This document shows, in pieces, positions 7,149 to 62,019 of a stretch of 64,000 nt of DNA (positions are counted from its first letter, which is position 1; every line of letters starts with the position of its first letter). Source of the DNA: Giardia intestinalis (Eukaryota); assembly GCA_000002435.2 (NCBI GenBank), contig CM018792.1, one strand, 5' to 3'. Both the position numbers and the translations under genes were made by a program. The notes under the pieces are model-generated. The model had not been told where the DNA came from. It searched no databases and saw nothing but the letters and a program-made list of their open reading frames with translations.

Positions 7149-7886
7149 ATGGGGTGGGATCTGCCAATTGATGGGCTTCCTTCACCAGCTACAAGTCCTG
7201 GCCGTAAGTATTTAGAAAGTGACTACAAAATGAACAATAGCTTTCTGTGCGAACCGGAGTGTGAGGCGCCAGAACCCCATGCTGGGTACCATACTAATAC
7301 TGATTCTAGACAGGCTCCTATTGACACACCCGTAGAATTTCGCTATGTAAATGTTACAAATCCGCGGCAAACAAGCATAGAAACAGGCACATTCACGGTT
7401 AACACCCCCTCTGTCCCATGTATTACGGAATCCATAATTGATGATCAGGAGCTGGAGGGCCCCGCTGTTTGGCAGAAAAAGCAGCACGTAGGTATTCACT
7501 CAAGTTGTGGCAGCGACGATGATCTGTCTTTGAAGAAACCTGATCAACCAAAGATGATCAAGCCAGACTACACGTATCAGACCATGTCGTCTAACTTGCC
7601 TAAGATACCCACGGACGAGGAGCTGAACACGCTGATAGCTACAGAGACACACAAAACCAATATTCCTAAAAAGCGCCCTGTAAGCAATTTTGCCAAGACT
7701 GTTGAGAAAAAGGCACAATTGGCCCCTAAATCTGGCGTAGGAAGGGACGTAATAATGCGGAAACTTGGAGCCCTTCTTACAGACACTCCAAGCGACGTTC
7801 CAGTTTACTCTATGGACGACAAGACTCTAGTTGCTCTCACCGAACAAGCTCTAATGAGCTTCAGTGACTCTCTTTATAAGTGGTAA
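7149..7886 (+). CDS. hypothetical protein (245 aa)
   Basis: ATG preceded by 'aaaaaagg'. ORF of host composition. No family recognised. Confidence 0.5.
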   Translation: MGWDLPIDGLPSPATSPGRKYLESDYKMNNSFLCEPECEAPEPHAGYHTNTDSRQAPIDTPVEFRYVNVTNPRQTSIETGTFTVNTPSVPCITESIIDDQELEGPAVWQKKQHVGIHSSCGSDDDLSLKKPDQPKMIKPDYTYQTMSSNLPKIPTDEELNTLIATETHKTNIPKKRPVSNFAKTVEKKAQLAPKSGVGRDVIMRKLGALLTDTPSDVPVYSMDDKTLVALTEQALMSFSDSLYKW

Positions 7887-7984
7887 ACCATATCACCAAC
7901 GCATGCAGAGACGTCAAAGGTTTGAAGAGTCCGTAGAGTACTAGATTGCCCCAAAGACTAAAATTCAGAAATTAAAAACATTAA

Positions 7985-9307
7985 ATGGTCAAAGGACTGG
8001 CGAAGGAGCAGAAGGTGCGTCTCTACCTTGGTGGACTGAAGAATGTAGAGCAGCTAATGAAAGGGGATGTTTTGATGGGCGACGACGGGAATCCACGTAC
8101 CATCAGTGCTGTGCATTCGTCAATGTCCAAAACGTACACCATTACCTATTCGTCCTATTTGGATGTTAAGGACGACCGGAGTTTTGTCTGTGGAGATGAT
8201 GCTGTTCTTATTTTAATCCCCGATGGGAACCGAGAGGTGAATAGAATTATTAATACCGGAGCAGACAACCAATATGTGGTTGAGTTTGTTGAGCCTGTCA
8301 CGGACGCAATGAAGTCCATCTCTGGCGTCAAGCTGCAGTGGAAAGTCTTTGCACAAGCTGACGACGCGCTTTCATATGTGGATCGTAGTCTCCCGAATTT
8401 TCTCTATGAATCTAAGTTGAGCGACTTCATCAAGTTAGAGCCTAAGCTTCAGCGCATGTTCAAGCTTGTTCGTCCGCTTCTTCCAATACGTTTTGTTGAC
8501 GCAGTAACGGTGATTCAAGATGAAACCAAAACAGACGTTGATATCTTGAAGAATATGGATATTCGCCCAACAGACCTGCCATGGTTGTGTGGCCTCTATC
8601 TGATTACCGGGATATGTATTGATGAGAGGTCGTTCCGCTTCCACTTGAAGGAGCTCAATAGTAACATTGCGGGAGAGGTTAAGCGTATATTCCGCTGTTT
8701 GAATTCCTATTATGAAATACAATTTGATGAGGCTTCGGAGAATTACACCATTAGGTTCCAAGGTGCCAGTGAGACAAACGACTTTTTCAAGCGGTTTATG
8801 ATCCAGTTTGGAATGTATGACGCTCGTACGAAGCGATACGTGAAGGATTCATTGAACCCACAGGTGTATCTTGAGAGCTTCAGTAGAATACGGGGCCCTT
8901 TTCTAGCAGGGATCCTCGATGGTAGCTCTGGGTACGGATTATCGGACATAAACCATGGACTGGAGTGTTATATTAGAGGGATCTCATCACCGGCGACACG
9001 GGAGGTGGTCGCTGACCTTGCCCGTTCGTGCTCTCTTAGCGCTGTTGTTGACCAGAGTGACAATAATACGCTAATCTTAGCAGGCGGAATGCTCTTCCGT
9101 GTACCGTGTGTCTCCACAATTCCTAAGGACTTTCCAGGGCTAGTGTCCCTCACATCCTACCCCAACCCAGACGGGAGCTCTGTTCTGCTTGGCATGCCTA
9201 TGCCATTCTCCATAAAAGAGTCTGGCACGCGCGAATGCTATTTCTTGGACATCCAGGAGCCGAACAAGCGGTGCCTTCTCTCCGACTACACCGTTGTTCA
9301 TCTCTAG
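7985..9307 (+). CDS. free-standing VMA1-intein / HO-endonuclease-like protein (Hint + LAGLIDADG architecture)
   Basis: Collinear similarity to PI-SceI as I remember it. GLAKEQKVRLYLGGLKNVEQLMKGDVLMGDDGNPRTI aligns with CFAKGTNVLMADGSIECIENIEVGNKVMGKDGRPREV. WLCGLYLITG aligns with LLGLWIGDG. FLAGILDGSSGYG aligns with FLAGLIDSDGYV. DLARSCSLSAVV aligns with SLARSLGLVVSV. The C-terminal TVVHL aligns with VVVHN. Confidence 0.7.
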   Translation: MVKGLAKEQKVRLYLGGLKNVEQLMKGDVLMGDDGNPRTISAVHSSMSKTYTITYSSYLDVKDDRSFVCGDDAVLILIPDGNREVNRIINTGADNQYVVEFVEPVTDAMKSISGVKLQWKVFAQADDALSYVDRSLPNFLYESKLSDFIKLEPKLQRMFKLVRPLLPIRFVDAVTVIQDETKTDVDILKNMDIRPTDLPWLCGLYLITGICIDERSFRFHLKELNSNIAGEVKRIFRCLNSYYEIQFDEASENYTIRFQGASETNDFFKRFMIQFGMYDARTKRYVKDSLNPQVYLESFSRIRGPFLAGILDGSSGYGLSDINHGLECYIRGISSPATREVVADLARSCSLSAVVDQSDNNTLILAGGMLFRVPCVSTIPKDFPGLVSLTSYPNPDGSSVLLGMPMPFSIKESGTRECYFLDIQEPNKRCLLSDYTVVHL

Positions 9308-9332
9308 AGGTTAGAAATCCATCAGAGTAAAT

Positions 9333-10880
9333 TTACTCACTATGAGGGACGGCTGAAGCAGTGGGTGGATGGAGGCTTGCGCTTGTGGATAAAGCGCTAC
9401 CAGTCACTTCCCGGTGCTTCTTCAGAGGAATATATTTGGCAGCATCCTCAATCTCGTCCTTCGTAAGAAACGTGAGATTCTGTGGTTTCTCGGGGACATC
9501 ACAGCGATCACACTCCGTGAGGTGCTCAACAAAGTTCACGTCTTCGTCAACTGGATTCATCTTCGAGATCATGCGCTCAAGCTCCTGGTTCACGCGCTTG
9601 GCTTCTAAGTCGTCATCATACCCTTGTCTCAGAGTGTTGCGTAGGTTACTTCTATTGAGCTCATCCTCCCTTCGCTGAGCCTCATCAAGCTCCTTTAATC
9701 GGGCAGCATTGGCACGCTCGCGCTCTATCTCCTCTCTACGCTGCCGCTCGGCTTGTTCCTTCTGGTTTTTGATTTCGTCCGCCAAGTCTTTCGCCATCTG
9801 CCTATTGTGCTTTCGTGTCTCCTCTGCCAGTCGTGCATTTTCAGCGGCTATTTGATCGTGTAGCTTCCTTGCTATTTCCTTTTCACGCTCGCGCTCCTCT
9901 GTCTCCTTGGCCAATTGCTCGTCTTTAAGACGTTTTTGTTCTGCAGCAAAGTCATTTAGTTCAGCGAGTTTTCTAAGTCTCTCAGCTTCAGTTTCTTCCT
10001 GCCTTCCTACGGGCCCAATATAATCGTTTATCGCTGCCTTCTCCTCCTCGCGTCGCCTATCAGCCTCCTCCTTGCGCCTACGGATGTCAGCCTCGTGGTC
10101 ACGTTTCTGTTGGTCGGCAAAAGCACGCTGGCGTTCCAGTTCTCGCTGAGCATACTCCTGTGCCTCTCGACGTGCAGCCTCTTGTTGTTCCTTTTCGCGT
10201 TCTAACTCGCGCTGCATAGCCTCCCGTGCAGCTTGACGTGCCTTCTCACTCGCTCTAATTGCGGCCTGGGCATCATCTTGCACCCGCTTTCTCTGCAAAC
10301 GTTCAAGAGCAGCCTCGATATCAGCCAACTTTTTAGCATCATCTGCCTGTTGCTTGGCCGTCTTCTTTTCTTTGTCGCGTTCCATCTCTTCCAATAGCTT
10401 CCTCTTCGCCATATTTAGCTCATTGATGCATGTTGGACACCATGCATCCTCGCAGCGATCAACAACAATTCCAGATTTCATTGGATCATTGTGCCTGCAG
10501 TGAAGCGCCTTCTGCTCATTATAGTCTTTCATAGCAGCAAGAAGGTCCTTCTTTTCATCCAAGCTCATTGCTGCTAGTTGTGCAGTGGTGACGTAGGGTG
10601 CTGCTTTGGGCTGAATCCGAGAGCTGCCAGCAGAACCAGTGCTTGATCGAAGACAGCCTTCTTGTGGAGTCCTCTTTGCAGACGAGTTACCCACTGGAGT
10701 CATGGAGCCAGAGGGCGCCAAATCGTCCAACTTCAGATCACGCGGCTTAGCAGCTGGACTCACCACAGGTGGCTTCTCGCGGGGAGCCACAACCTTAAGC
10801 TCAGTGGAGCGGCTGATGGGATGGATGGGCTCGCTGGGAATGCTAACACCCAGGCTTCCCAGAATATCAAAGTCTGTCAT
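9333..10880 (-). CDS. charged (E/R/K/A-rich) coiled-coil protein, hypothetical
   Basis: ATG preceded by 'ataaaaaa'. There is a long ERK-rich helical region and a short Cys/His cluster (HCRH...CEDAWCPTC). Confidence 0.6.
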   Translation of the reverse strand: MTDFDILGSLGVSIPSEPIHPISRSTELKVVAPREKPPVVSPAAKPRDLKLDDLAPSGSMTPVGNSSAKRTPQEGCLRSSTGSAGSSRIQPKAAPYVTTAQLAAMSLDEKKDLLAAMKDYNEQKALHCRHNDPMKSGIVVDRCEDAWCPTCINELNMAKRKLLEEMERDKEKKTAKQQADDAKKLADIEAALERLQRKRVQDDAQAAIRASEKARQAAREAMQRELEREKEQQEAARREAQEYAQRELERQRAFADQQKRDHEADIRRRKEEADRRREEEKAAINDYIGPVGRQEETEAERLRKLAELNDFAAEQKRLKDEQLAKETEEREREKEIARKLHDQIAAENARLAEETRKHNRQMAKDLADEIKNQKEQAERQRREEIERERANAARLKELDEAQRREDELNRSNLRNTLRQGYDDDLEAKRVNQELERMISKMNPVDEDVNFVEHLTECDRCDVPEKPQNLTFLTKDEIEDAAKYIPLKKHREVTGSALSTSASLHPPTASAVPHSE

Positions 10881-17673: not shown

Positions 17674-18611
17674 ATACCAAACCTTTGTGATAGTTTTCTT
17701 GCCCGTTCCATGTCCATGCTTAGTACAGTTGATAGTCCTTTCCAAATGACAGGGTCGAACTCATGTTGGTAAGCAGAATCTACTTGATCATCTGATTGCT
17801 GCGTATCCGAAAAACAAATTGTTGACCTAACATATAAAGACTCATATTCGTGCTTATTAAGGTCTATTTGTAGACCATGAATTGCGTAAAGTCGTTGCTG
17901 TTCTATCTTATCTGTGTATCTTCTTATCGTAATTAATCCTTCTGCATACAATTGCGCTATATCAAAGATAGCATGCACCGTTCGAGTAAAGTCTGTTGGG
18001 CTGAGAAATACGAAGGCCAGGGGGTAGAAGCCGCGGCGCGAGAGCTCCGTGACCCGCGCGAGGAGCCCCTGCTTCCGGCGCTCCTGGAGCTCGGCGCCGC
18101 ACATCGCGAGGGCCTCGTAGCGCCGCCGCTCGACGGCCTGCGCGCCGGAGGGCTCTGCCTCCCGGGGCCGCGGGGGAGCCCTGGGGGCTGCGGGCCCTGC
18201 GGTGCCGGCGGCGCACCCCGCGTACAGCGAGGCCGCGAGCTCGGGCGGGAAGCGGGCGGCGTACCCGGCCTGGAACGCGTCGGCGAGGAGGCGCAGGTCG
18301 ACGCGCGGCGGGTCTGCAGGGGCCCCGGCCCGGGGGAGGAGCCGCAGCTGGCCGCGGAGGAAGCCGGCGCCCTGGTCCTCGGCCGCCCGGGCCACCCGCG
18401 CCTCCAGGCTCCGGGCAGACAGGCGCACCGTGGCGGACAGCGCGGCCTCCGTCTGCAGCATCAGGCCGACGTCCCCCCGGGGCTGGGCGGCGTAGGACTC
18501 GTAGCCGTCCCGGAGCTCGGCCAGGAGCGCCGTGACCGCCGCGTGGTCCCGGGCCTGCGCGGCCGCCTGCACCCGGGCGGAGACGCTCGCGAGGCGCGCA
18601 CGGGGCTCCAT
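17667..18611 (-). CDS. cassette gene A, full-length form (314 aa): GC-rich N-terminal ~202 codons fused in frame to ~111 host-composition codons
   Basis: The ATG at 18611 lies 11 nt from the A/T island 'gaatttt'. GC3 is near 100% up to 18012, and the same frame then continues without a stop through normal-composition DNA to the TGA at 17667. The upstream part of the 780-aa track ORF is a GC artefact. Confidence 0.65.
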   Translation of the reverse strand: MEPRARLASVSARVQAAAQARDHAAVTALLAELRDGYESYAAQPRGDVGLMLQTEAALSATVRLSARSLEARVARAAEDQGAGFLRGQLRLLPRAGAPADPPRVDLRLLADAFQAGYAARFPPELAASLYAGCAAGTAGPAAPRAPPRPREAEPSGAQAVERRRYEALAMCGAELQERRKQGLLARVTELSRRGFYPLAFVFLSPTDFTRTVHAIFDIAQLYAEGLITIRRYTDKIEQQRLYAIHGLQIDLNKHEYESLYVRSTICFSDTQQSDDQVDSAYQHEFDPVIWKGLSTVLSMDMERARKLSQRFGIQ

Positions 18612-18653
18612 CGGACGGGGCGGAATTTTGCCGGCCGGCCAAAAATTCACTCG
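18612..18653. promoter_or_regulatory. 42-bp divergent A/B promoter with near-palindromic A/T islands
   Basis: GAATTTTGCCGGCCGGCCAAAAATTC (18623-18648) sits between the two divergent ATGs. It is one of only about five A/T-rich spots in the whole block. Confidence 0.55.
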
Positions 18654-19793
18654 ATGGACTGCATCGGCCGCGGCGTCCTCCTCCCCCCGGGCGGGGCGTG
18701 CTCGTGCGGGGCGCTTCTGGCGGAGCTGCAGCGGGTCTGCCCCCTCCTCGCCGCCTCCCCGGGGGTCTGCGCCGCGCCCCGGGCCCTTGCGTGCTGCCAC
18801 CAGCCCCCGTGCCTCGAGATCGCGCCGGCGCCGGCCACCCCGCGCAGCGCCGTCCGGGTCCCTGGGTCCGCGTGCACGGCTCCACCGCCCGCCGCAGGGC
18901 CCCCGGAGGCCGCCCCGGCCGAGAGCGTCCAGGTGACCCTCAGCGCCCAGCGCGAGTCGTTCGTGATGCAGACGATGCGGCAGGCGCACTACGGCGGCGG
19001 AGAGGCCCCCGCGAGGGCGGAGAGCGCCCGCCTGCCCGCCCCGCAGGCCTCGGACCCGAGGGAGGCCCGGCGGAGCCACGCGTCCCGCCCGCGGACGGCC
19101 GGCCCCCGCCTCCCCGCCTGCCCCGAGGAGCCCCCCGGCAGGGTCCAGTTCCGGGGCGCCCCCGAGGCCCCGCCCCTGCGCTGCGAGCCGGCCCCGCCCT
19201 CCGAGTTCAGCGACTTCGGGTGCGAGCTGCTCGCGGCGGGCCAGCCCGAGGACCGGCGGGTCTGCGGCGCCCCGTGGGTGGACGCGCAGGACCTGCTGAG
19301 CGACGGCTCCGAGCACAGCGAGTTCTACCGCCTCGTCGAGAGGGAGCTCGCGCGGCTTCCGGAGCCCGCGGCCCCGGCCCTCCCGGAGAGCGAGCCCTCG
19401 CTGGACGCGCTGCCCGTGCACGCCTCGCCCCGGGGCCCGCAGATCATCGAGCCCACGCCGGCCGCCCTGCAGGAGCCAGAGGAGCCCGCGCCCCCGCAGC
19501 CCCCCACGCCGGGCCGCTCCGACAGCGTCTCGGCAGACATCACGGAGTCGCTCCTCGTGGAGGGCCGGCCCCTGCCCGACCGCCCCCCGGGCCCGGAGCC
19601 GTCCGAGGGCAGCGCCGGGTACAGCGGAGAGGCCTTCGACAGCTCCGGCTCGCCCCGGGGCCTGACCGACGAGGCCGCGGGGTCTGCGGGCCTGGACGAG
19701 GAGGACCTGCTGGGGTCCGTCGGCGGGGACCTGCGGGCGCTGCTCATGGACAGCGGGTCCGGGTCGCTGTCTGCGGGGGCCTGGCCGGAGTGA
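18654..19793 (+). CDS. cassette gene B: acidic, Pro/Ala-rich, probably disordered protein (379 aa)
   Basis: ATG preceded by 'ccaaaaattcactcg'. GC3 is near 100% in this frame. The TGA stop is embedded in AGTGAAC (19789-19795). The N-terminal ~100 codons are uncertain, because the substitution cluster there is mostly nonsynonymous. Confidence 0.55.
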   Translation: MDCIGRGVLLPPGGACSCGALLAELQRVCPLLAASPGVCAAPRALACCHQPPCLEIAPAPATPRSAVRVPGSACTAPPPAAGPPEAAPAESVQVTLSAQRESFVMQTMRQAHYGGGEAPARAESARLPAPQASDPREARRSHASRPRTAGPRLPACPEEPPGRVQFRGAPEAPPLRCEPAPPSEFSDFGCELLAAGQPEDRRVCGAPWVDAQDLLSDGSEHSEFYRLVERELARLPEPAAPALPESEPSLDALPVHASPRGPQIIEPTPAALQEPEEPAPPQPPTPGRSDSVSADITESLLVEGRPLPDRPPGPEPSEGSAGYSGEAFDSSGSPRGLTDEAAGSAGLDEEDLLGSVGGDLRALLMDSGSGSLSAGAWPE

Positions 19794-19795
19794 AC
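19789..19795 (+). terminator. AGTGAAC poly(A)-signal-like motif overlapping the gene B stop
   Basis: It matches the Giardia-type AGTRAAY consensus and is an isolated A/T-containing motif in GC-rich DNA. Confidence 0.5.
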
Positions 19796-19816
19796 TCGGG
19801 AGAGCCTTTTTATTGA

Positions 19817-22327
19817 ATGGATTCTGCGCCACTCGCCGTCGCGATCCGGGAGCACGTCCCGGGCCCGAGGCCCCCGCCGCGGCCGTCCGGGGGGCGGTCC
19901 CTCTTCGCGCAGGCCGTGGCCGCCGGGGCCGGACAGACCGGGAGGCCCTTCGCCCTCGGGCAGCCCCCGCCGCGCGCCCCGGCCCCAGCGCCGCCCCGGG
20001 GCCCCCCACCGCCCCCCGCCGCAGAGGACCCGGGCGGGCCCCTCCTCGGGTACGGGGGCGCCGCAGACCCGGAGGCCGTCCCGTTCTGCAGCGCGGCGGA
20101 CATCGGGCTCCTCTGCCGGTCGACGAACCCCGCCCAGCGCGAGTACGGGCTCCGGATGCTCGCGAACGCCGTCGCGCTCCGGCGCGTCCGGGACGGCGGC
20201 GCCCCCGACCCCGTCCTCGAGGCCCTGCTCTGCCTCCCCGCCGACCCGCACGCGTGCCCCTCGTCTGCCGGCCACCTCCTCCTCCTGGGCCTGCGGGACG
20301 CCCTGGAGTCCGGGAGCCCCGGCCTCCTCGACGCCGCCCTCTCCGGCCTCGCCACGGTCTTCGTCGCCGACGAGGGCTTCCTCAGCGAGACCGTCCACGT
20401 CGGGGCCGCGCTGCTCGGGCTGACGTCCAGCTCGGTCGCCTTCCCCCTCGGCTCCCTGCTGCGGCGGCTCGTCGAGCACGGGCTCCCGGGGCTCCTGGGC
20501 CAGGCCCTCGACGCCGCCGCGCGCGCAGACGAGCGGCGCCGGGAGCGGCTCGCCCACAGCGCGTACCTGCTGGCCGAGCGCGTGCTCATCGGCTGCTGCC
20601 CCGCAGACGAGCCCCCGGAGACCGCCGCCGGCCTGCGGGCCCTCGCGGAGCGGCTCCTCGCGGCGCTCCTGGGCGAGCTCGCCGGGCTGGCGGAGACGGG
20701 GGCCTTCCTGACGACCGCCTCCCGCGTCGCCCTCCGGACGCTCTGCTACGACCACGTCCTCGACGGCCACGCGCTCGGCCGGGACGCCGTCGCCCTCCTC
20801 GTCGAGTCCCTCGAGGCGTTCGTCGGGGCGCTCCCCGGCCAGGACGAGGCGGTCCGCACAGAGCTCCTCTCGGCCGCCACGCTCCACTACCTCCTCGTCG
20901 CCCGGGTCCTGCGGGGGAGCCCCGAGCTCTGCGCCCTGCACGCGGCCGTCTCTGCGACGTGCGCCGCCGCCCTGGAGCGCCACGCCCCGGCCGCCCCCGC
21001 GGAGCTCAGCGCGCTCCTCGTCCTGCTCCGGATCCTCCGGGCCCGGGCCGCCGTCCCCCGCGCGCGCCTGGGGCTCTCGGAGGCATGCTTCCGGCGGCTG
21101 GTCGACTGGCGGGCCCCGCCCGAGGCCGGGGGCTTCGCGCTGCCCCAGGGGCCCTCCGCGGCGTTCGCCCCGTTCTACGCCCTCGCGGCCGTCCAGTGGC
21201 GCGGCCCGGGCGAGTGGGGCGCGGCGGAGGCCTGGGTCGGCTGCGTGATGGACGTCCTCGCCAGCGGGCCCCCGGTCGCGCGCTGGGCGCCCCCGGCCGT
21301 CGACGCCCACCGGCGGGCAGGCGTGCTCCCGTGCGCGGTGACCGACGCAGGGGTCGCCCTCGCGCTCCTCGTCGCGGCCCTGGCGGCCGTCTGGGGCCCC
21401 GGGCTCCCGTTTGCCGCCGGCCTCGCCGAGCGGGTCGGGGAGCGCCTGGCAGGGCTCCCGGCCGAGTTCCGGTTCGTCGTCGCGTTCCCGCTCGCCCGGC
21501 TCCTCCCCCCGCTGCCCGCTATCGAGTGCGGGCTCTACCCGAACGCGGCGCTCCTCGGGGCGCTCCGGGCCGTCACGGGCCACCCGGGCTACGACCCCGC
21601 GGCAGAGGCGCTTGCGCACGTCGACGCCCGCTGCCCGTGCCCCGCGCTCGCGGCCCTCCACGCGGCGTGCGTGCTCGCCTCGGACGGGATGCGGCGCGAC
21701 GGGGCGTGGCGGCTCGCGGTCCTCCGGCTCGCGCTGCAGCGCCTGGCCGGGCTGGAGACCGCAGGGGCCGCCCGGGGCCGCGTCCTCGCGTACGGGCTCC
21801 TCTGCGTCCTCGACACGCTGACGGGCGTCTGTCGCCTCCCCCCGGACGCCGCGGCCCTCCTCGCGGAGACGCTCGCCGGGGTCCTCCGCCTCGCCCGCGC
21901 AGGCCCCGCCCCCGCCGCCGAGCTCCTCTACGCAGCGCCCGCCGGGGGGCTCCGGACGCTCGACGCCGCCGCCGGCGCGTTTGTCGAGGGCCTCCACGGG
22001 GGCGCGGCGGTGCTCCCCGAGGCCCCGCTCGTCTACCTCGCGCTCCTCCACCCGCAGCTCGTCCCGGACCCCCGCCGCCGGGCAGAGCTCTGGTCCGGGC
22101 TCGCGCTCCTGCGGCTCGACTTCGCGGCGCTCGACGGGGGCCTCCTCGCGGGGCTCTGCGAAGACGACCCCGCGCCCGTCCTCGCGTGCCTCGCGTGCTA
22201 CGAGCGCCGCGCAGAGACCGCCCTGTCGCGCCGCGTCCTCGCCCGGTACGCAGAGGCCCACCGGGGGCAGAGGCCCGACCGGGTCGTCGTCGCGGCCGTC
22301 GAGGAGGCCCTCCGACCAGCGGGCTAG
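19817..22327 (+). CDS. cassette gene C: 836-aa Ala/Leu-rich alpha-helical-repeat (ARM/HEAT-like) protein
   Basis: ATG preceded by 'cctttttattga'. GC3 is near 100%. Six of the 7 between-copy substitutions are third-position synonymous changes in this frame. The overlapping 925-aa (+) and 978-aa (-) ORFs are Arg/Pro/Gly low-complexity artefacts. Confidence 0.8.
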   Translation: MDSAPLAVAIREHVPGPRPPPRPSGGRSLFAQAVAAGAGQTGRPFALGQPPPRAPAPAPPRGPPPPPAAEDPGGPLLGYGGAADPEAVPFCSAADIGLLCRSTNPAQREYGLRMLANAVALRRVRDGGAPDPVLEALLCLPADPHACPSSAGHLLLLGLRDALESGSPGLLDAALSGLATVFVADEGFLSETVHVGAALLGLTSSSVAFPLGSLLRRLVEHGLPGLLGQALDAAARADERRRERLAHSAYLLAERVLIGCCPADEPPETAAGLRALAERLLAALLGELAGLAETGAFLTTASRVALRTLCYDHVLDGHALGRDAVALLVESLEAFVGALPGQDEAVRTELLSAATLHYLLVARVLRGSPELCALHAAVSATCAAALERHAPAAPAELSALLVLLRILRARAAVPRARLGLSEACFRRLVDWRAPPEAGGFALPQGPSAAFAPFYALAAVQWRGPGEWGAAEAWVGCVMDVLASGPPVARWAPPAVDAHRRAGVLPCAVTDAGVALALLVAALAAVWGPGLPFAAGLAERVGERLAGLPAEFRFVVAFPLARLLPPLPAIECGLYPNAALLGALRAVTGHPGYDPAAEALAHVDARCPCPALAALHAACVLASDGMRRDGAWRLAVLRLALQRLAGLETAGAARGRVLAYGLLCVLDTLTGVCRLPPDAAALLAETLAGVLRLARAGPAPAAELLYAAPAGGLRTLDAAAGAFVEGLHGGAAVLPEAPLVYLALLHPQLVPDPRRRAELWSGLALLRLDFAALDGGLLAGLCEDDPAPVLACLACYERRAETALSRRVLARYAEAHRGQRPDRVVVAAVEEALRPAG

Positions 22328-22328
22328 C

Positions 22329-22335
22329 GTTCACT
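22329..22335 (-). terminator. AGTGAAC poly(A)-signal-like motif overlapping the kinase stop
   Basis: The minus strand reads TGAGTGAAC. Only 7 bp separate the convergent stops of C and D. Confidence 0.5.
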
Positions 22336-23264
22336 CAATCAGGGGCACCTGACCCCAGGGCGGCCCGCAGGCCCGCGACCTCCCCCCGGAGCCGGGCGAC
22401 CTCGTCCTCCAGGGCCTTGAAGCGCAGGGCCGTCGCGACCGCAGGCGCCCCGCCCTCTGCGTCGAGGAGCTCCACGAGGGCCGCGGCGGTGAGGCGGCGC
22501 TCCGGCTCCAGGACGAGGAGGTGGGCGAGGACGCCCCGGACGACGGGGTCCCCGACCGCGCCCAGGTCCGGCCGCCAGCCCGCGACGTAGACCTCCGCGG
22601 GGGCCCGCCCGGAGAGGAACGGGGGCCTGCCGCCCGCCGCGAGCTCGTAGGCGACCATCCCGAGGCTCCACATGTCCGCGGCCGGCGTGTGGCTCCCGCC
22701 CCGCAGGACCTCCGGCGCGGCGTAGACGGGGACGGCCATGGAGGCGAGCCCCCCGGGGCCCTCCCTGCAGAGCCCGAAGTCGGAGATGGCGAACTCCGCC
22801 CCGGCCTCGTCGAGGAGGACGTTCGCGGGCCGCAGGTCGCAGTGCGTGAGGGCGGGGAGCGGGGCGCCCGCGGCGTCGGTCTTCCCGGGCCGGTGGAGGT
22901 AGGCGAGCCCCGCGCCCACCTGGCGGAGGACGGCGACGACCATCTCGCGCGGGGCGAGCTGCCTTCTGCGGCGGAGGCTCCGGATGGCCCCGTCGAGGGA
23001 GCCTGCGTAGCGCCGCATCTCGACGTAGATGTAGCCCTCGTGCCGGACGACGCGCCCGTACTCGACGACGTTCGGGTGGCGGAGGCGCGGGAGGGTCCGG
23101 AGCTCGAGCTCGAGCGAGGCCTGCGCGTCGGGGGGCAGCCCGTCGGTCGGGATCTCCTTGACCGCCCTGTCGGGGGCGCTCTTCAGGCCGTAGACGGTCC
23201 CGTGGGCCCCGCTCCCGAGCTCTGCGCCCAGGTCTTCGAGGAGGGCGTCGATGGCCTCGGACAT
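22335..23264 (-). CDS. cassette gene D: NEK-like Ser/Thr protein kinase with short coiled-coil tail (309 aa)
   Basis: ATG preceded by 'attaaaaag'. Motifs are LGSGAHGTVY, AVKEI, HPNVVEY, HCDLRPANVLL, SDFGL, AAPEV and DMWSLG. The TGA stop overlaps AGTGAAC. Confidence 0.9.
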   Translation of the reverse strand: MSEAIDALLEDLGAELGSGAHGTVYGLKSAPDRAVKEIPTDGLPPDAQASLELELRTLPRLRHPNVVEYGRVVRHEGYIYVEMRRYAGSLDGAIRSLRRRRQLAPREMVVAVLRQVGAGLAYLHRPGKTDAAGAPLPALTHCDLRPANVLLDEAGAEFAISDFGLCREGPGGLASMAVPVYAAPEVLRGGSHTPAADMWSLGMVAYELAAGGRPPFLSGRAPAEVYVAGWRPDLGAVGDPVVRGVLAHLLVLEPERRLTAAALVELLDAEGGAPAVATALRFKALEDEVARLRGEVAGLRAALGSGAPD

Positions 23265-23268
23265 CTTT

Positions 23269-23595
23269 TTAATCCGCGACTGGGCGATTGGGTGGGCTCA
23301 ATCGCTTGGGCTCAGATCGGGGCCTGTATAGATTCACCGAACAGATATGACAATTAGCGCACTTACTACCTAAGTTACGTCTTCCTGCAGCAGAAAAATC
23401 CAATGAGACCACCGCGCTCTTAGTAATATTAGAATTTGCGCATTTTGTCTTATCGTTATTAGAGTCAAAGATTTTTATCCTGGCACAATTATTGGATCTG
23501 TCCTTGTAGTTAGTAGTGGAAAATCCCACTCCACATGATGTTTGTGCCCATATAAACTGGATAATTAAGGCAACAAACACAAATCTGCCAAGCAT
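23269..23595 (-). CDS. small ORF with signal-peptide-like N-terminus, reading into the right end of copy 1 (doubtful)
   Basis: ATG at 23595 and a hydrophobic N-terminus, MLGRFVFVALIIQFIWA. The first 93 codons are host-composition DNA, and the last 15 codons plus the stop lie inside the repeat. Confidence 0.25.
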   Translation of the reverse strand: MLGRFVFVALIIQFIWAQTSCGVGFSTTNYKDRSNNCARIKIFDSNNDKTKCANSNITKSAVVSLDFSAAGRRNLGSKCANCHICSVNLYRPRSEPKRLSPPNRPVAD

Positions 23596-56287: not shown

Positions 56288-56911
56288 CTAAAGAGTAAGC
56301 TTAAGAAATACGAAGGCCAGGGGGTAGAAGCCGCGGCGCGAGAGCTCCGTGACCCGCGCGAGGAGCCCCTGCTTCCGGCGCTCCTGGAGCTCGGCGCCGC
56401 ACATCGCGAGGGCCTCGTAGCGCCGCCGCTCGACGGCCTGCGCGCCGGAGGGCTCTGCCTCCCGGGGCCGCGGGGGAGCCCTGGGGGCTGCGGGCCCTGC
56501 GGTGCCGGCGGCGCACCCCGCGTACAGCGAGGCCGCGAGCTCGGGCGGGAAGCGGGCGGCGTACCCGGCCTGGAACGCGTCGGCGAGGAGGCGCAGGTCG
56601 ACGCGCGGCGGGTCTGCAGGGGCCCCGGCCCGGGGGAGGAGCCGCAGCTGGCCGCGGAGGAAGCCGGCGCCCTGGTCCTCGGCCGCCCGGGCCACCCGCG
56701 CCTCCAGGCTCCGGGCAGACAGGCGCACCGTGGCGGACAGCGCGGCCTCCGTCTGCAGCATCAGGCCGACGTCCCCCCGGGGCTGGGCGGCGTAGGACTC
56801 GTAGCCGTCCCGGAGCTCGGCCAGGAGCGCCGTGACCGCCGCGTGGTCCCGGGCCTGCGCGGCCGCCTGCACCCGGGCGGAGACGCTCGCGAGGCGCGCA
56901 CGGGGCTCCAT
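56288..56911 (-). CDS. cassette gene A, C-terminally truncated form (207 aa)
   Basis: Codons 1-202 are identical to copy 1. At the repeat edge the frame runs into the local flank and ends ...FVFLKLTL then TAG. Confidence 0.5.
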   Translation of the reverse strand: MEPRARLASVSARVQAAAQARDHAAVTALLAELRDGYESYAAQPRGDVGLMLQTEAALSATVRLSARSLEARVARAAEDQGAGFLRGQLRLLPRAGAPADPPRVDLRLLADAFQAGYAARFPPELAASLYAGCAAGTAGPAAPRAPPRPREAEPSGAQAVERRRYEALAMCGAELQERRKQGLLARVTELSRRGFYPLAFVFLKLTL

Positions 56912-56953
56912 CGGACGGGGCGGAATTTTGCCGGCCGGCCAAAAATTCACTCG

Positions 56954-58093
56954 ATGGACTGCATCGGCCGCGGCGTCCTCCTCCCCCCGGGCGGGGCGTG
57001 CTCGTGCGGGGCGCTTCTGGCGGAGCTGCAGCGGGTCTGCCCCCTCCTCGCCGCCTCCCCGGAGGTCTGCGCCGCGCCCCGGGCCCTTGTCTGCTGCCGC
57101 CAGCCCCCGTGCCTCGAGATCGCGCCGGCGCCGGCCACCCCGAGCAGCGCCGTCCGGGTCCCTGGGTCCGCGTGCACGGCTCCACCGCCCGCCGCAGGGC
57201 CCCCGGAGGCCGCCCCGGCCGAGAGCGTCCAGGTGACCCTCAGCGCCCAGCGCGAGTCGTTCGTGATGCAGACGATGCGGCAGGCGCACTACGGCGGCGG
57301 AGAGGCCCCCGCGAGGGCGGAGAGCGCCCGCCTGCCCGCCCCGCAGGCCTCGGACCCGAGGGAGGCCCGGCGGAGCCACGCGTCCCGCCCGCGGACGGCC
57401 GGCCCCCGCCTCCCCGCCTGCCCCGAGGAGCCCCCCGGCAGGGTCCAGTTCCGGGGCGCCCCCGAGGCCCCGCCCCTGCGCTGCGAGCCGGCCCCGCCCT
57501 CCGAGTTCAGCGACTTCGGGTGCGAGCTGCTCGCGGCGGGCCAGCCCGAGGACCGGCGGGTCTGCGGCGCCCCGTGGGTGGACGCGCAGGACCTGCTGAG
57601 CGACGGCTCCGAGCACAGCGAGTTCTACCGCCTCGTCGAGAGGGAGCTTGCGCGGCTTCCGGAGCCCGCGGCCCCGGCCCTCCCGGAGAGCGAGCCCTCG
57701 CTGGACGCGCTGCCCGTGCACGCCTCGCCCCGGGGCCCGCAGATCATCGAGCCCACGCCGGCCGCCCTGCAGGAGCCAGAGGAGCCCGCGCCCCCGCAGC
57801 CCCCCACGCCGGGCCGCTCCGACAGCGTCTCGGCAGACATCACGGAGTCGCTCCTCGTGGAGGGCCGGCCCCTGCCCGACCGCCCCCCGGGCCCGGAGCC
57901 GTCCGAGGGCAGCCCCGGGTACAGCGGAGAGGCCTTCGACAGCTCCGGCTCGCCCCGGGGCCTGACCGACGAGGCCGCGGGGTCTGCGGGCCTGGACGAG
58001 GAGGACCTGCTGGGGTCCGTCGGCGGGGACCTGCGGGCGCTGCTCATGGACAGCGGGTCCGGGTCGCTGTCTGCGGGGGCCTGGCCGGAGTGA
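56954..58093 (+). CDS. cassette gene B, copy 2
   Basis: It has the same signals as copy 1 and differs by 5 amino-acid changes and 1 synonymous change. Confidence 0.55.
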   Translation: MDCIGRGVLLPPGGACSCGALLAELQRVCPLLAASPEVCAAPRALVCCRQPPCLEIAPAPATPSSAVRVPGSACTAPPPAAGPPEAAPAESVQVTLSAQRESFVMQTMRQAHYGGGEAPARAESARLPAPQASDPREARRSHASRPRTAGPRLPACPEEPPGRVQFRGAPEAPPLRCEPAPPSEFSDFGCELLAAGQPEDRRVCGAPWVDAQDLLSDGSEHSEFYRLVERELARLPEPAAPALPESEPSLDALPVHASPRGPQIIEPTPAALQEPEEPAPPQPPTPGRSDSVSADITESLLVEGRPLPDRPPGPEPSEGSPGYSGEAFDSSGSPRGLTDEAAGSAGLDEEDLLGSVGGDLRALLMDSGSGSLSAGAWPE

Positions 58094-58116
58094 ACTCGGG
58101 AGAGCCTTTTTATTGA

Positions 58117-60627
58117 ATGGATTCTGCGCCACTCGCCGTCGCGATCCGGGAGCACGTCCCGGGCCCGAGGCCCCCGCCGCGGCCGTCCGGGGGGCGGTCC
58201 CTCTTCGCGCAGGCCGTGGCCGCCGGGGCCGGGCAGACCGGAAGGCCCTTCGCCCTCGGGCAGCCCCCGCCGCGCGCCCCGGCCCCAGCGCCGCCCCGGG
58301 GCCCCCCACCGCCCCCCGCCGCAGAGGACCCGGGCGGGCCCCTCCTCGGGTACGGGGGCGCCGCAGACCCGGAGGCCGTCCCGTTCTGCAGCGCGGCGGA
58401 CATCGGGCTCCTCTGCCGGTCGACGAACCCCGCTCAGCGCGAGTACGGGCTCCGGATGCTCGCGAACGCCGTCGCGCTCCGGCGCGTCCGGGACGGCGGC
58501 GCCCCCGATCCCGTCCTCGAGGCCCTGCTCTGCCTCCCCGCCGACCCGCACGCGTGCCCCTCGTCTGCCGGCCACCTCCTCCTCCTGGGCCTGCGAGACG
58601 CCCTGGAGTCCGGGAGCCCCGGCCTCCTCGACGCCGCCCTCTCCGGCCTCGCCACGGTCTTCGTCGCCGACGAGGGCTTCCTCAGCGAGACCGTCCACGT
58701 CGGGGCCGCGCTGCTCGGGCTGACGTCCAGCTCGGTCGCCTTCCCCCTCGGCTCCCTGCTGCGGCGGCTCGTCGAGCACGGGCTCCCGGGGCTCCTGGGC
58801 CAGGCCCTCGACGCCGCCGCGCGCGCAGACGAGCGGCGCCGGGAGCGGCTCGCCCACAGCGCGTACCTGCTGGCCGAGCGCGTGCTCATCGGCTGCTGCC
58901 CCGCAGACGAGCCCCCGGAGACCGCCGCCGGCCTGCGGGCCCTCGCGGAGCGGCTCCTCGCGGCGCTCCTGGGCGAGCTCGCCGGGCTGGCGGAGACGGG
59001 GGCCTTCCTGACGACCGCCTCCCGCGTCGCCCTCCGGACGCTCTGCTACGACCACGTCCTCGACGGCCACGCGCTCGGCCGGGACGCCGTCGCCCTCCTC
59101 GTCGAGTCCCTCGAGGCGTTCGTCGGGGCGCTCCCCGGCCAGGACGAGGCGGTCCGCACAGAGCTCCTCTCGGCCGCCACGCTCCACTACCTCCTCGTCG
59201 CCCGGGTCCTGCGGGGGAGCCCCGAGCTCTGCGCCCTGCACGCGGCCGTCTCTGCGACGTGCGCCGCCGCCCTGGAGCGCCACGCCCCGGCCGCCCCCGC
59301 GGAGCTCAGCGCGCTCCTCGTCCTGCTCCGGATCCTCCGGGCCCGGGCCGCCGTCCCCCGCGCGCGCCTGGGGCTCTCGGAGGCATGCTTCCGGCGGCTG
59401 GTCGACTGGCGGGCCCCGCCCGAGGCCGGGGGCTTCGCGCTGCCTCGGGGGCCCTCCGCGGCGTTCGCCCCGTTCTACGCCCTCGCGGCCGTCCAGTGGC
59501 GCGGCCCGGGCGAGTGGGGCGCGGCGGAGGCCTGGGTCGGCTGCGTGATGGACGTCCTCGCCAGCGGGCCCCCGGTCGCGCGCTGGGCGCCCCCGGCCGT
59601 CGACGCCCACCGGCGGGCAGGCGTGCTCCCGTGCGCGGTGACCGACGCAGGGGTCGCCCTCGCGCTCCTCGTCGCGGCCCTGGCGGCCGTCTGGGGCCCC
59701 GGGCTCCCGTTTGCCGCCGGCCTCGCCGAGCGGGTCGGGGAGCGCCTGGCAGGGCTCCCGGCCGAGTTCCGGTTCGTCGTCGCGTTCCCGCTCGCCCGGC
59801 TCCTCCCCCCGCTGCCCGCTATCGAGTGCGGGCTCTACCCGAACGCGGCGCTCCTCGGGGCGCTCCGGGCCGTCACGGGCCACCCGGGCTACGACCCCGC
59901 GGCAGAGGCGCTTGCGCACGTCGACGCCCGCTGCCCGTGCCCCGCGCTCGCGGCCCTCCACGCGGCGTGCGTGCTCGCCTCGGACGGGATGCGGCGCGAC
60001 GGGGCGTGGCGGCTCGCGGTCCTCCGGCTCGCGCTGCAGCGCCTGGCCGGGCTGGAGACCGCAGGGGCCGCCCGGGGCCGCGTCCTCGCGTACGGGCTCC
60101 TCTGCGTCCTCGACACGCTGACGGGCGTCTGTCGCCTCCCCCCGGACGCCGCGGCCCTCCTCGCGGAGACGCTCGCCGGGGTCCTCCGCCTCGCCCGCGC
60201 AGGCCCCGCCCCCGCCGCCGAGCTCCTCTACGCAGCGCCCGCCGGGGGGCTCCGGACGCTCGACGCCGCCGCCGGCGCGTTTGTCGAGGGCCTCCACGGG
60301 GGCGCGGCGGTGCTCCCCGAGGCCCCGCTCGTCTACCTCGCGCTCCTCCACCCGCAGCTCGTCCCGGACCCCCGCCGCCGGGCAGAGCTCTGGTCCGGGC
60401 TCGCGCTCCTGCGGCTCGACTTCGCGGCGCTCGACGGGGGCCTCCTCGCGGGGCTCTGCGAAGACGACCCCGCGCCCGTCCTCGCGTGCCTCGCGTGCTA
60501 CGAGCGCCGCGCAGAGACCGCCCTGTCGCGCCGCGTCCTCGCCCGGTACGCAGAGGCCCACCGGGGGCAGAGGCCCGACCGGGTCGTCGTCGCGGCCGTC
60601 GAGGAGGCCCTCCGACCAGCGGGCTAG
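58117..60627 (+). CDS. cassette gene C, copy 2 (836 aa)
   Basis: The ORF is intact, with one replacement (Q->R) and 6 synonymous differences relative to copy 1. Confidence 0.8.
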   Translation: MDSAPLAVAIREHVPGPRPPPRPSGGRSLFAQAVAAGAGQTGRPFALGQPPPRAPAPAPPRGPPPPPAAEDPGGPLLGYGGAADPEAVPFCSAADIGLLCRSTNPAQREYGLRMLANAVALRRVRDGGAPDPVLEALLCLPADPHACPSSAGHLLLLGLRDALESGSPGLLDAALSGLATVFVADEGFLSETVHVGAALLGLTSSSVAFPLGSLLRRLVEHGLPGLLGQALDAAARADERRRERLAHSAYLLAERVLIGCCPADEPPETAAGLRALAERLLAALLGELAGLAETGAFLTTASRVALRTLCYDHVLDGHALGRDAVALLVESLEAFVGALPGQDEAVRTELLSAATLHYLLVARVLRGSPELCALHAAVSATCAAALERHAPAAPAELSALLVLLRILRARAAVPRARLGLSEACFRRLVDWRAPPEAGGFALPRGPSAAFAPFYALAAVQWRGPGEWGAAEAWVGCVMDVLASGPPVARWAPPAVDAHRRAGVLPCAVTDAGVALALLVAALAAVWGPGLPFAAGLAERVGERLAGLPAEFRFVVAFPLARLLPPLPAIECGLYPNAALLGALRAVTGHPGYDPAAEALAHVDARCPCPALAALHAACVLASDGMRRDGAWRLAVLRLALQRLAGLETAGAARGRVLAYGLLCVLDTLTGVCRLPPDAAALLAETLAGVLRLARAGPAPAAELLYAAPAGGLRTLDAAAGAFVEGLHGGAAVLPEAPLVYLALLHPQLVPDPRRRAELWSGLALLRLDFAALDGGLLAGLCEDDPAPVLACLACYERRAETALSRRVLARYAEAHRGQRPDRVVVAAVEEALRPAG

Positions 60628-60634
60628 CGTTCAC

Positions 60635-61564
60635 TCAATCAGGGGCACCTGACCCCAGGGCGGCCCGCAGGCCCGCGACCTCCCCCCGGAGCCGGGCGAC
60701 CTCGTCCTCCAGGGCCTTGAAGCGCAGGGCCGTCGCGACCGCAGGCGCCCCGCCCTCTGCGTCGAGGAGCTCCACGAGGGCCGCGGCGGTGAGGCGGCGC
60801 TCCGGCTCCAGGACGAGGAGGTGGGCGAGGACGCCCCGGACGACGGGGTCCCCGACCGCGCCCAGGTCCGGCCGCCAGCCCGCGACGTAGACCTCCGCGG
60901 GGGCCCGCCCGGAGAGGAACGGGGGCCTGCCGCCCGCCGCGAGCTCGTAGGCGACCATCCCGAGGCTCCACATGTCCGCGGCCGGCGTGTGGCTCCCGCC
61001 CCGCAGGACCTCCGGCGCGGCGTAGACGGGGACGGCCATGGAGGCGAGCCCCCCGGGGCCCTCCCTGCAGAGCCCGAAGTCGGAGATGGCGAACTCCGCC
61101 CCGGCCTCGTCGAGGAGGACGTTCGCGGGCCGCAGGTCGCAGTGCGTGAGGGCGGGGAGCGGGGCGCCCGCGGCGTCGGTCTTCCCGGGCCGGTGGAGGT
61201 AGGCGAGCCCCGCGCCCACCTGGCGGAGGACGGCGACGACCATCTCGCGCAGGGCGAGCTGCCTTCTGCGGCGGAGGCTCCGGATGGCCCCGTCGAGGGA
61301 GCCTGCGTAGCGCCGCATCTCGACGTAGATGTAGCCCTCGTGCCGGACGACGCGCCCGTACTCGACGACGTTCGGGTGGCGGAGGCGCGGGAGGGTCCGG
61401 AGCTCGAGCTCGAGCGAGGCCTGCGCGTCGGGGGGCAGCCCGTCGGTCGGGATCTCCTTGACCGCCCTGTCGGGGGCGCTCTTCAGGCCGTAGACGGTCC
61501 CGTGGGCCCCGCTCCCGAGCTCTGCGCCCAGGTCTTCGAGGAGGGCGTCGATGGCCTCGGACAT
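60635..61564 (-). CDS. cassette gene D, NEK-like kinase, copy 2
   Basis: The ATG at 61564 follows 'attaaaaag'. There is one replacement (P->L). The 15-codon upstream extension in the track ORF (start 61609) is created by the 8-bp insertion and lacks an initiator. Confidence 0.9.
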   Translation of the reverse strand: MSEAIDALLEDLGAELGSGAHGTVYGLKSAPDRAVKEIPTDGLPPDAQASLELELRTLPRLRHPNVVEYGRVVRHEGYIYVEMRRYAGSLDGAIRSLRRRRQLALREMVVAVLRQVGAGLAYLHRPGKTDAAGAPLPALTHCDLRPANVLLDEAGAEFAISDFGLCREGPGGLASMAVPVYAAPEVLRGGSHTPAADMWSLGMVAYELAAGGRPPFLSGRAPAEVYVAGWRPDLGAVGDPVVRGVLAHLLVLEPERRLTAAALVELLDAEGGAPAVATALRFKALEDEVARLRGEVAGLRAALGSGAPD

Positions 61565-62019
61565 CTTTTTAATCCGCGACTGGGCGATTGGGTGATTGGG
61601 CGGGCTCAATCGCTTGGGCTCAGACTGAGATACCGCCTAGCTGAGCGCCGCTCAATGAGGGTGATCGGGCGGAATTGAACGAAAAGGAAAGGACCCGACC
61701 ATCGTTCCAGAGATGGCTTGACCGAGTTCGCCTGTCGACTAGGATCAGATCAGGCAGCTAGTACTGGACTACTCACTATCAATATGTATTCTATCACTGG
61801 AGTTATGGAACAGCTAAGTGAAGTCTATATTCTTAAGATGAATCTTAATTGTCAATAATTGATGTTTACAAATCTGGAGTCTCTGCATCTTAGGTCAATC
61901 CTAAATAGGTAAATATGAGCATGTCCAGATAAAGTTTACTGTCAACCCACATAGTAAGATAAGTTAAAGCAGATTACGACCTCCGAGGTTGAAAGAGGGA
62001 ATGCTTGTTGATGACCTCA

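Follow-up and report, generated by a model that had tools for sequence, protein, structure and literature searches.

We analysed a 64,000-nucleotide stretch of contig CM018792.1 of Giardia intestinalis (assembly GCA_000002435.2; hereafter, the window) and, in particular, its gene GL50803_4149, which apparently is a selfish element turned into an ordinary cell protein in Giardia and its diplomonad relatives. The open reading frame (ORF) starts with ATG and closes with TAG at positions 9305-9307 (Table 1). Its product is 100% identical to XP_001706123.1 (UniProt A8BML4) of G. intestinalis WB, and the locus was assigned through the number shared with the DHA2_4149 orthologue and through a 440-residue Hom_end_hint entry in a published table (PMC5070761). 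The presence of the gene is not new, given that a Hom_end_hint domain match is already part of the public annotation: the database name in G. intestinalis WB is 'Homing endonuclease', and the counterparts in assemblages A2, B and E are called 'hypothetical' or 'Hom-end-associated Hint domain-containing protein'. In the open-access literature, we found no paper analysing the gene, only the one proteome table entry, and diplomonads are absent from two surveys of eukaryotic inteins (PMC5784728, PMC10710043). What is new here is the reading of GL50803_4149 as a lineage-wide, selected, doubly inactivated intein.

Table 1. Coordinates of GL50803_4149, its parts and its immediate surroundings in the window.
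Feature	Position	Strand	Detail and basis
Whole free-standing intein-derived gene GL50803_4149	7985..9307	+	440 residues plus TAG; Pfam, hhalign, Foldseek, database identity
N-terminal Hint half, blocks A and B	7994..8248	+	residues 4-88; HMMER, hhalign against PI-SceI and 60+ inteins
DNA-recognition region (collinear with that of PI-SceI) and linker to the endonuclease domain	8249..8566	+	residues 89-194; alignment
First LAGLIDADG-type motif, WLCGLYLITG	8582..8611	+	residues 200-209; alignment
Most conserved part of the family	8873..9199	+	residues 297-405; 35-70% of positions invariant from Giardia to Hexamita
Second LAGLIDADG-type motif, FLAGILDGSSG	8900..8932	+	residues 306-316; alignment
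C-terminal Hint half, blocks F and G	9200..9304	+	residues 406-440; alignment
A/T-rich intergenic spacer	7887..7984	+	98 nucleotides, ending ...AAATTAAAAACATTAA-ATG; direct sequence reading
AGTAAAT	9326..9332	+	19 nucleotides past the GL50803_4149 stop, just before the end of the convergent gene; direct sequence reading
Convergent downstream gene	9333-10880	-	515 residues, Lys/Glu/Arg-rich, apparently coiled-coil

Homology to PI-SceI-class inteins

The GL50803_4149 protein matches Pfam PF05203 (Hom_end_hint) with 37.2 bits against a gathering cut-off of 32.1 (E 4.2e-9), the match spanning residues 15-439 and profile positions 12-228 of 228, and precomputed annotation places the same domain in 6 of 6 relatives. 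When the diplomonad family was compared with an intein alignment anchored on PI-SceI (also known as VDE), the VMA1 intein of S. cerevisiae (PDB 1vde, 1dfa, 1lws), hhalign returned a probability of 100% (E 2.8e-43) over 393 columns, aligning residues 5-439 with 2-453 of PI-SceI, the reference sequence of which was checked and is identical to PDB 1dfa/1vde. An exhaustive search with a profile of the 7 family members yielded 1353 proteins at E<=1e-3 among 1.84 billion representatives. The full-length matches examined are inteins inside eIF2-gamma-like GTPases, a ResIII helicase, an AAA ATPase and other P-loop NTPases, and the matches of these embedded inteins run from a Cys at profile position 3-5 to a His-Asn at 438-439, after which comes Cys, Ser or Thr. 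A word-indexed protein search with the family profile produced only one further, weak match, to an intein-bearing helicase, and an NCBIfam scan of the protein gave no match. At the structural level, Foldseek comparison of an AlphaFold2 model (predicted local distance difference test score, pLDDT, 69.8) returned PI-SceI chains as all of its top 11 PDB matches, over the full length (E 1e-19 to 5e-16; template modelling score ~0.6), with Prp8 and mini-inteins following for the Hint part and, weakly, I-DmoI and I-SceI for the LAGLIDADG part. The homology is real by four independent tests, and both the fold of a PI-SceI-class intein and its order of domains are retained in GL50803_4149.

PI-SceI, the best PDB match by both sequence and fold, shares with the Giardia protein the order of N-terminal Hint part, DNA-recognition region, two-motif LAGLIDADG domain and C-terminal Hint part, at a similar length (454 and 440 residues, respectively). 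Both LAGLIDADG helices lie in one chain, in keeping with the alpha-beta-beta-alpha-beta-beta-alpha core of LAGLIDADG endonucleases, and align with the motifs of PI-SceI and other inteins; the region collinear with the DNA-recognition region contains the family-invariant stretches LPNFLYE and LVRPLLPIRF, with an invariant PDGNR just upstream, and the C-terminus, ...CLLSDYTVVHL, aligns with the intein consensus ...RFLLxDFTVxHN. An earlier note, made from the DNA letters alone, had described a 440-residue ORF in a diplomonad, collinear with PI-SceI over the Hint block, the LAGLIDADG motifs, the DNA-recognition region and the C-terminal block. This description holds in full: the profile comparison set beforehand as the decisive check produced the PF05203 and hhalign matches, and the proposed structure prediction led to PI-SceI.

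Residues for splicing and DNA cleavage

We compared the 7 diplomonad proteins with 18 bona fide inteins, namely, PI-SceI and 17 others, which keep C1, H79, D218, K301, D326, K403, H453 and N454 (PI-SceI numbering) almost without exception. In GL50803_4149, the position of the splicing nucleophile C1 is occupied by Gly4, after M-V-K; Gly is found there in the four Giardia-type sequences, and Ser in Spironucleus and Hexamita, in which only Met-x-x precedes this position and the block-B His is likewise missing. Within block B, N76 corresponds to Gly70 and H79 to Ala73, the latter position being Ala or Thr in 7/7 diplomonads versus His in 18/18 inteins. The splicing C-terminus H453-N454 has become His439-Leu440 (NV, NV, GM and SV elsewhere, each followed by a stop), and the position of the +1 extein nucleophile is a stop codon. 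In the nuclease part, D218 of motif 1, an Asp in nearly all inteins, is replaced by Thr208 in WLCGLYLITG and by Ala in three other diplomonads, and D326 of motif 2 by Ser314 in FLAGILDGSSG, which is invariant in 7/7 diplomonads. The picture is less clear for the two active-site lysines: K301 aligns to S/R/G/K/K, with an invariant Lys (Lys287) two residues upstream, and K403 aligns to Pro380, with an invariant Lys381 adjoining. The intein alignment thereby reproduces the replacements that the earlier note had read from the sequence (Cys1 to Gly after MVK, absence of the block-B TxxH motif, terminal HN to HL, and the LAGLIDADG acidic residues to Thr and Ser).

A side observation concerns motif 2: in the orthologues from Spironucleus and Hexamita and in a third one, P0004, an Asp stands two residues past the catalytic position (..DGSSDYG.., the column of residue 316), where G. 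intestinalis and G. muris have Gly. This Asp could be a displaced acidic residue or noise.

PI-SceI sits in Vma1, splices and cuts DNA; by contrast, the Giardia protein, at 17-19% identity, is without exteins and without C1, H79, D218, D326 and N454. Because the splicing residues and both metal-binding aspartates are lost, it would neither splice nor cut DNA by the mechanisms of its family. The gene is co-extensive with an intein, with only the three residues M-V-K before the Cys1 position and nothing past that of the terminal Asn. This exact coincidence of ORF ends and intein ends, together with the fact that Giardia trans-splices a few mRNAs, could be taken to indicate a working intein, the exteins of which were missed owing to trans-splicing of the flanking parts at the mRNA level or to a wrong gene model. 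However, an in-frame TAA at 7982-7984 directly abuts the ATG, the spacer carries no N-extein coding sequence, the preceding ORF (7149-7886) is read in another frame, and no codon separates the last intein-aligned residue from the stop, so that the absence of exteins on either side, as the earlier note had it, is clear. Moreover, none of the residues for splicing (nucleophile, block-B His, terminal Asn, +1 residue) is present, and the same extein-free, stand-alone architecture is found in the orthologues, including four other species with differing neighbours, which renders a working intein vanishingly improbable. GL50803_4149 is, then, no functional intein: of five defining features looked for, none was found.

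Inheritance, relatives and origin

In family-profile searches, orthologues were found only in diplomonads, where 7/7 sequences, from six distinct lineages and including three named species besides G. intestinalis, contain intact frames of 426-440 residues. Identity to GL50803_4149 over the full length is 93% in another G. duodenalis lineage, 84% in a Giardia-like sequence, 67% in G. muris, 56% in another diplomonad, 46% in Spironucleus salmonicida and 44% in Hexamita inflata. The orthologues are single-copy, with one cluster per species, and the search for paralogues suggested by the earlier note found none in the window. A neighbour-joining (NJ) tree of the orthologues separates Giardia from Spironucleus plus Hexamita, that is, it recovers the accepted grouping of Giardia versus Hexamitinae. 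The two genes downstream, encoding the convergent coiled-coil protein (515-556 residues) and a 244-residue protein, are the same in WB, G. muris and another assemblage (tblastn identities of 42-47% and 28%). The Spironucleus and Hexamita genes (L004 6001-7299 and L005 6001-7281) contain 22 and 5 in-frame TAA/TAG codons, respectively, end with TGA and give the database proteins only under the hexamitid code (genetic code 6), in which TAA and TAG stand for glutamine; these copies follow the variant code of their hosts and, therefore, the gene has long been resident. Between WB and the other assemblage, the proportion of nonsynonymous differences (pN) is 0.037 and that of synonymous differences (pS) 0.705, the latter near saturation, so that pN/pS is ~0.05, and amino-acid identity is 93% versus 85%, 68% and 70% for three neighbouring genes. 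Finally, a trophozoite proteome lists the product among its detected proteins, as a Hom_end_hint-containing 'hypothetical protein' (PMC5070761). Thus, GL50803_4149 is a vertically inherited single-copy cell gene under strong purifying selection that is expressed as a protein. Fragments of 50-145 residues from read-set assemblies (P0007-P0013, P0017, P0048, P0049, P0063) also match the family (E 1e-9 to 1e-52), those in P0007 and P0008 looking hexamitid-like, which suggests that more diplomonad species carry the gene.

These data bear on two other readings of the locus. A decaying relic, that is, an intein or homing-endonuclease pseudogene with a frame open by chance, would account for the loss of all catalytic residues and for the failure of the Pfam LAGLIDADG models to detect the endonuclease domain, but not for the intact frames in all seven diplomonad sequences, the pN/pS of ~0.05, the near-invariant stretches of 40+ residues shared by Giardia and Hexamita, or the proteomic detection; given this conservation, the relic scenario is effectively refuted. 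A selfish mobile gene for a free-standing, active LAGLIDADG homing endonuclease, which would cut its target site and let the gene copy itself in, would have the PI-SceI-class fold and the PF05203 domain seen here, has counterparts among free-standing intein-like ORFs with intact LAGLIDADG motifs (P0045, P0075, P0118 and one in Klosneuvirus), and could draw on the invariant Lys287 and Lys381, which adjoin the active-site K301 and K403 positions. Against such an enzyme stand the replacement of both metal-binding aspartates in 7/7 orthologues (T/A at D218, S at D326), the single copy, the synteny with G. muris, the agreement of gene tree and species tree, the acidic isoelectric point (pI), and very strong purifying selection, unlike the invasion-decay cycle of homing endonuclease genes. 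We consider it quite improbable: neither the catalytic residues nor the mobility expected of an active LAGLIDADG endonuclease was found, and, on these grounds, GL50803_4149 is not predicted to be one. Accordingly, the label 'homing endonuclease' probably is misleading, reflecting the ancestry of the gene rather than its likely activity.

The closest relatives of the family are not the yeast inteins. Against the family profile, PI-SceI scores 31 bits, compared to 50-76 bits for environmental inteins in Walker-A P-loops or eIF2-gamma-like GTPases, most of which are inserted right after the Walker-A Gly-Lys (..sGK|C...HN|S/T..) and some in the D|CPGH motif of the eIF2-gamma-like GTPases; similarly, by NJ distance, >15 other inteins are nearer to the diplomonad family than PI-SceI. 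The nearest inteins by sequence are environmental sequences from Logan, ENA or JGI. In a viral structure library, the best matches to the AlphaFold model (E 1e-21 to 1e-17) are intein-bearing proteins of Marseillevirus- or Pithovirus-like metagenomic giant viruses, with a GTPase, RecD and A18 helicases, a deoxynucleoside kinase and a packaging ATPase as hosts, and their fit to the model equals that of PI-SceI. Inteins of the P-loop and DxPGH type, known from giant viruses, environmental sequences and Anaeramoeba (PMC10710043), are the highest-scoring full-length relatives; the P-loop and GTPase inteins share with the diplomonad family the block A consensus C-F-x-x-x-T-x-V-L-M-x-D-G and the block G consensus L-L-x-D-F-T-V-x-H-N, but are embedded in their hosts and keep all splicing and nuclease residues, at identities to the Giardia protein below ~20%. 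The VMA1/HO-like assignment of the earlier note is, therefore, to be narrowed: the PI-SceI-class fold stands, the specific affinity to VMA1 or HO does not. Its statement that such inteins are known from yeasts, which would make their presence in a diplomonad surprising, has to be widened, because higher-scoring environmental and giant-virus inteins demonstrate that the PF05203 class is not yeast-confined; Anaeramoeba, a metamonad, possesses dozens of inteins, one cluster of which targets the P-loops of proteins that are otherwise unrelated, and viruses have been implicated in their spread (PMC10710043). In an NJ tree with inteins, as proposed in the earlier note, the diplomonad family is monophyletic on a long branch. 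The nominal sister group in this tree, P0079, was discarded, being itself a degenerate sequence in a long-branch family.

Among environmental and giant-virus sequences, we observed ORFs of 346-422 residues (P0045, P0075, P0118, P0026; BFVD A0A1V0SK08) that match the extent of an intein and no longer have the splice-junction residues; canonical LAGLIDADG motifs are still present in most of these ORFs. One of them, A0A1V0SK08, is a free-standing 401-residue 'homing endonuclease' of Klosneuvirus KNV1 that also matches the structural model. Together with P0045, P0075 and P0118, it resembles the Giardia protein in being stand-alone, intein-co-extensive and devoid of splice-junction residues, and the start of P0075 (...TK-GFAIDTKV) can be set beside that of the Giardia protein (MVK-GLAKEQKV). 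These four proteins differ from it in their canonical LAGLIDADG motifs (e.g., LLGLWLGDG, LAGLIDTDG), which suggest that they probably are still nucleases. Free-standing intein-derived endonuclease ORFs are a little-described class that could be a candidate donor type for the diplomonad gene.

Given the P-loop-type nearest relatives, the free-standing ORFs and the Anaeramoeba inteins, a plausible history is that an intein of the P-loop class, or an already free-standing derivative, entered a diplomonad ancestor and was then domesticated. In the former case, the intein coding sequence would have become an independent gene with the gene ends at the intein ends; in the latter, the source would have been a free-standing intein-derived homing-endonuclease gene like those of giant viruses. 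Either way, only Met and two further residues would have been gained at the N-terminus, and nothing at the C-terminus, with subsequent loss of the Cys1 nucleophile, the block-B His, the terminal Asn, the +1 nucleophile and both LAGLIDADG metal-binding aspartates, followed by vertical single-copy inheritance under strong purifying selection. In passing, we observe that the Giardia-type proteins start with M-V-K|G, M-P-R|G or M-I-R|G, with a basic residue at -1, comparable to the ..GK|C insertion site of most of the nearest inteins; speculatively, this Lys or Arg could be a relic of an ancestral ..GK|C extein junction, or else a coincidence. Recent horizontal transfer from a giant virus or some other donor, or contamination of the assembly, would fit the giant-viral origin of the closest structural matches and the environmental origin of the closest sequences. 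It is at odds with the presence and synteny of the gene in several Giardia assemblages and G. muris, with the local GC content of ~47% that matches the adjacent genes, with the TAA/TAG sense codons of the hexamitid copies and with divergence that mirrors the species tree; hence, either is very improbable. A transfer that long ago reached the diplomonad ancestor would agree with a domesticated intein and is no rival to it.

The best-known parallel is HO, a domesticated cell gene of budding yeasts (Coughlan et al. 2020, PMC7282813); HO and WHO cut DNA as active endonucleases, carry a zinc-finger domain at the C-terminus and have no motif G (PMC7282813). We set these proteins apart by the features described in that paper, the HO sequence not being part of our comparison. 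HO, WHO and the Giardia protein are alike in being stand-alone intein-derived genes without exteins and without protein splicing. Unlike HO and WHO, the Giardia protein stops exactly where the intein would and has no zinc finger; its motif-G backbone, LLSDYTVVH, is preserved, and the catalytic aspartates are gone. The diplomonad gene arose independently of HO, in another eukaryotic supergroup, and its conservation spans a far deeper clade; it parallels the domestication of HO and goes further through nuclease loss. The suggestion of the earlier note, an intein-derived gene recruited for a non-splicing and probably non-nuclease role, analogous to HO and more degenerate, is, thus, in line with the orthologues, the species-like tree, the synteny, the purifying selection, the hexamitid code and the proteome entry. 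Overall, we propose, with a probability of roughly 0.8, that GL50803_4149 is a domesticated, catalytically inert intein derivative.

Several observations weigh against this proposal or parts of it. The Pfam LAGLIDADG models PF05204 and PF14528 do not match GL50803_4149 in a scan of the protein, which is a caveat to the assignment of the LAGLIDADG domain, and the AlphaFold model, only moderately confident as a whole, is poor at residues 300-400 (pLDDT 32-60 in the 297-405 region). The equivalence of loop residues is uncertain by 1-2 positions (K301 versus S289/K287; K403 versus P380/K381), and the Asp of ..DGSSDYG.. could conceivably mark a residual single active site in the three distant orthologues that have it. 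With respect to the donor lineage, the NJ tree offers no specific sister group. Finally, conservation in the family is lowest (0-5% invariant positions) in the beta-saddle of the first subdomain (residues 241-280), the DNA-contacting element of active enzymes, and the family is acidic (pI 5.2-5.8), whereas most of the active relatives have a pI of 8-9.8.

Mode of action, surroundings and significance

Most likely, GL50803_4149 acts as a non-catalytic binding module. Binding of nucleic acid is the natural expectation because the protein retains the LAGLIDADG scaffold and the DNA-recognition region, and because there is a precedent: nuclease-dead LAGLIDADG proteins, such as group I intron maturases and nuclear-encoded organellar splicing factors, bind nucleic acid without cutting it. 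By analogy of mechanism, these maturases share with the Giardia protein a LAGLIDADG scaffold kept after loss of the catalytic acidic residues; they differ in lacking a Hint domain and in acting on organellar group I introns. We know of no such group I intron or organelle genome in diplomonads, and an Rfam scan of the whole window found no family at threshold. The expectation is tempered by the acidity of the proteins and the poor conservation of the beta-saddle; the low pI, in particular, does not favour a general affinity for DNA. Specific binding of DNA or RNA through the retained DNA-recognition region and LAGLIDADG scaffold is, by analogy, a tentative proposal that would have somewhat less than even odds.

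The candidate for a new functional surface is the region of residues 297-405, which comprises the second LAGLIDADG helix, the next strands and the ADLARSCSL helix. The region also includes a near-invariant and diplomonad-specific segment, AGGMLFRVPCVSTIPKDFPGLVSLTSYPNPDGSSVLLGMP, which exceeds the equivalent PI-SceI loop by ~10 residues. Protein binding through this ultra-conserved surface is a similarly tentative, slightly less favoured proposal, the remainder of the split falling to some other new activity, so that a protein-binding or otherwise new site on this surface and nucleic-acid binding appear about equally likely. A bolder version, in which residues 297-405 with the lineage-specific insertion GLVSLTSYPNPDGSSVLLGMP form a new functional site on the dead LAGLIDADG/Hint scaffold and confer a new lineage-specific, possibly essential activity or partner, seems possible, if on balance unlikely; an example may be a chromatin or RNA factor with sequence specificity in these binucleate parasites. 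The specific mode of binding is much less certain than the domesticated, inert status of the protein.

Short A/T-rich initiators abutting the ATG are typical of Giardia promoters, and the spacer preceding GL50803_4149 is A/T-rich. The AGTAAAT past the stop is a candidate polyadenylation signal, as it fits the Giardia consensus, AGTRAAY. The stop codons of GL50803_4149 and the convergent gene are 25 nucleotides apart, and the product of the latter has no Pfam match. Elsewhere in the window, 18004-23294 and 56304-61594 are two copies of a dispersed direct repeat of ~5.3 kb that are ~99.7% identical, lie exactly 38,300 bp apart and have a G+C content of 78%, compared to ~46% for the region. The repeat carries long overlapping ORFs on both strands, e.g., 19817-22327 (+) with an 836-residue Ala/Leu/Pro-rich product; these ORFs have no Pfam match, and the exact 836-residue ORF recurs on 4.4-kb contigs of two public read-set assemblies. 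Giardia ribosomal DNA was discarded as the identity of the repeat, there being no Rfam match in the whole window and no match to a probe for the 5′ end of the small-subunit gene.

To our knowledge, the documented domestications of intein-derived genes have so far come down essentially to HO, which occurs in a few yeast genera and kept its nuclease. In the present case, an entire deep protist lineage has retained a complete intein as a stand-alone gene while both ancestral activities were lost, which implies that the Hint and LAGLIDADG scaffold can be reused for another purpose. If the new site on this scaffold is real, this would be the first whole intein exapted to a non-nuclease, non-splicing cell role, kept since before the split of Giardia and the hexamitids. 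The case fits with the massive intein content of the metamonad Anaeramoeba and with intein traffic mediated by giant viruses. For the intein field, a natural 'dead intein' under selection is now available, and, for the biology of Giardia, a well-conserved, expressed gene is flagged that has been carried under a probably misleading database name.

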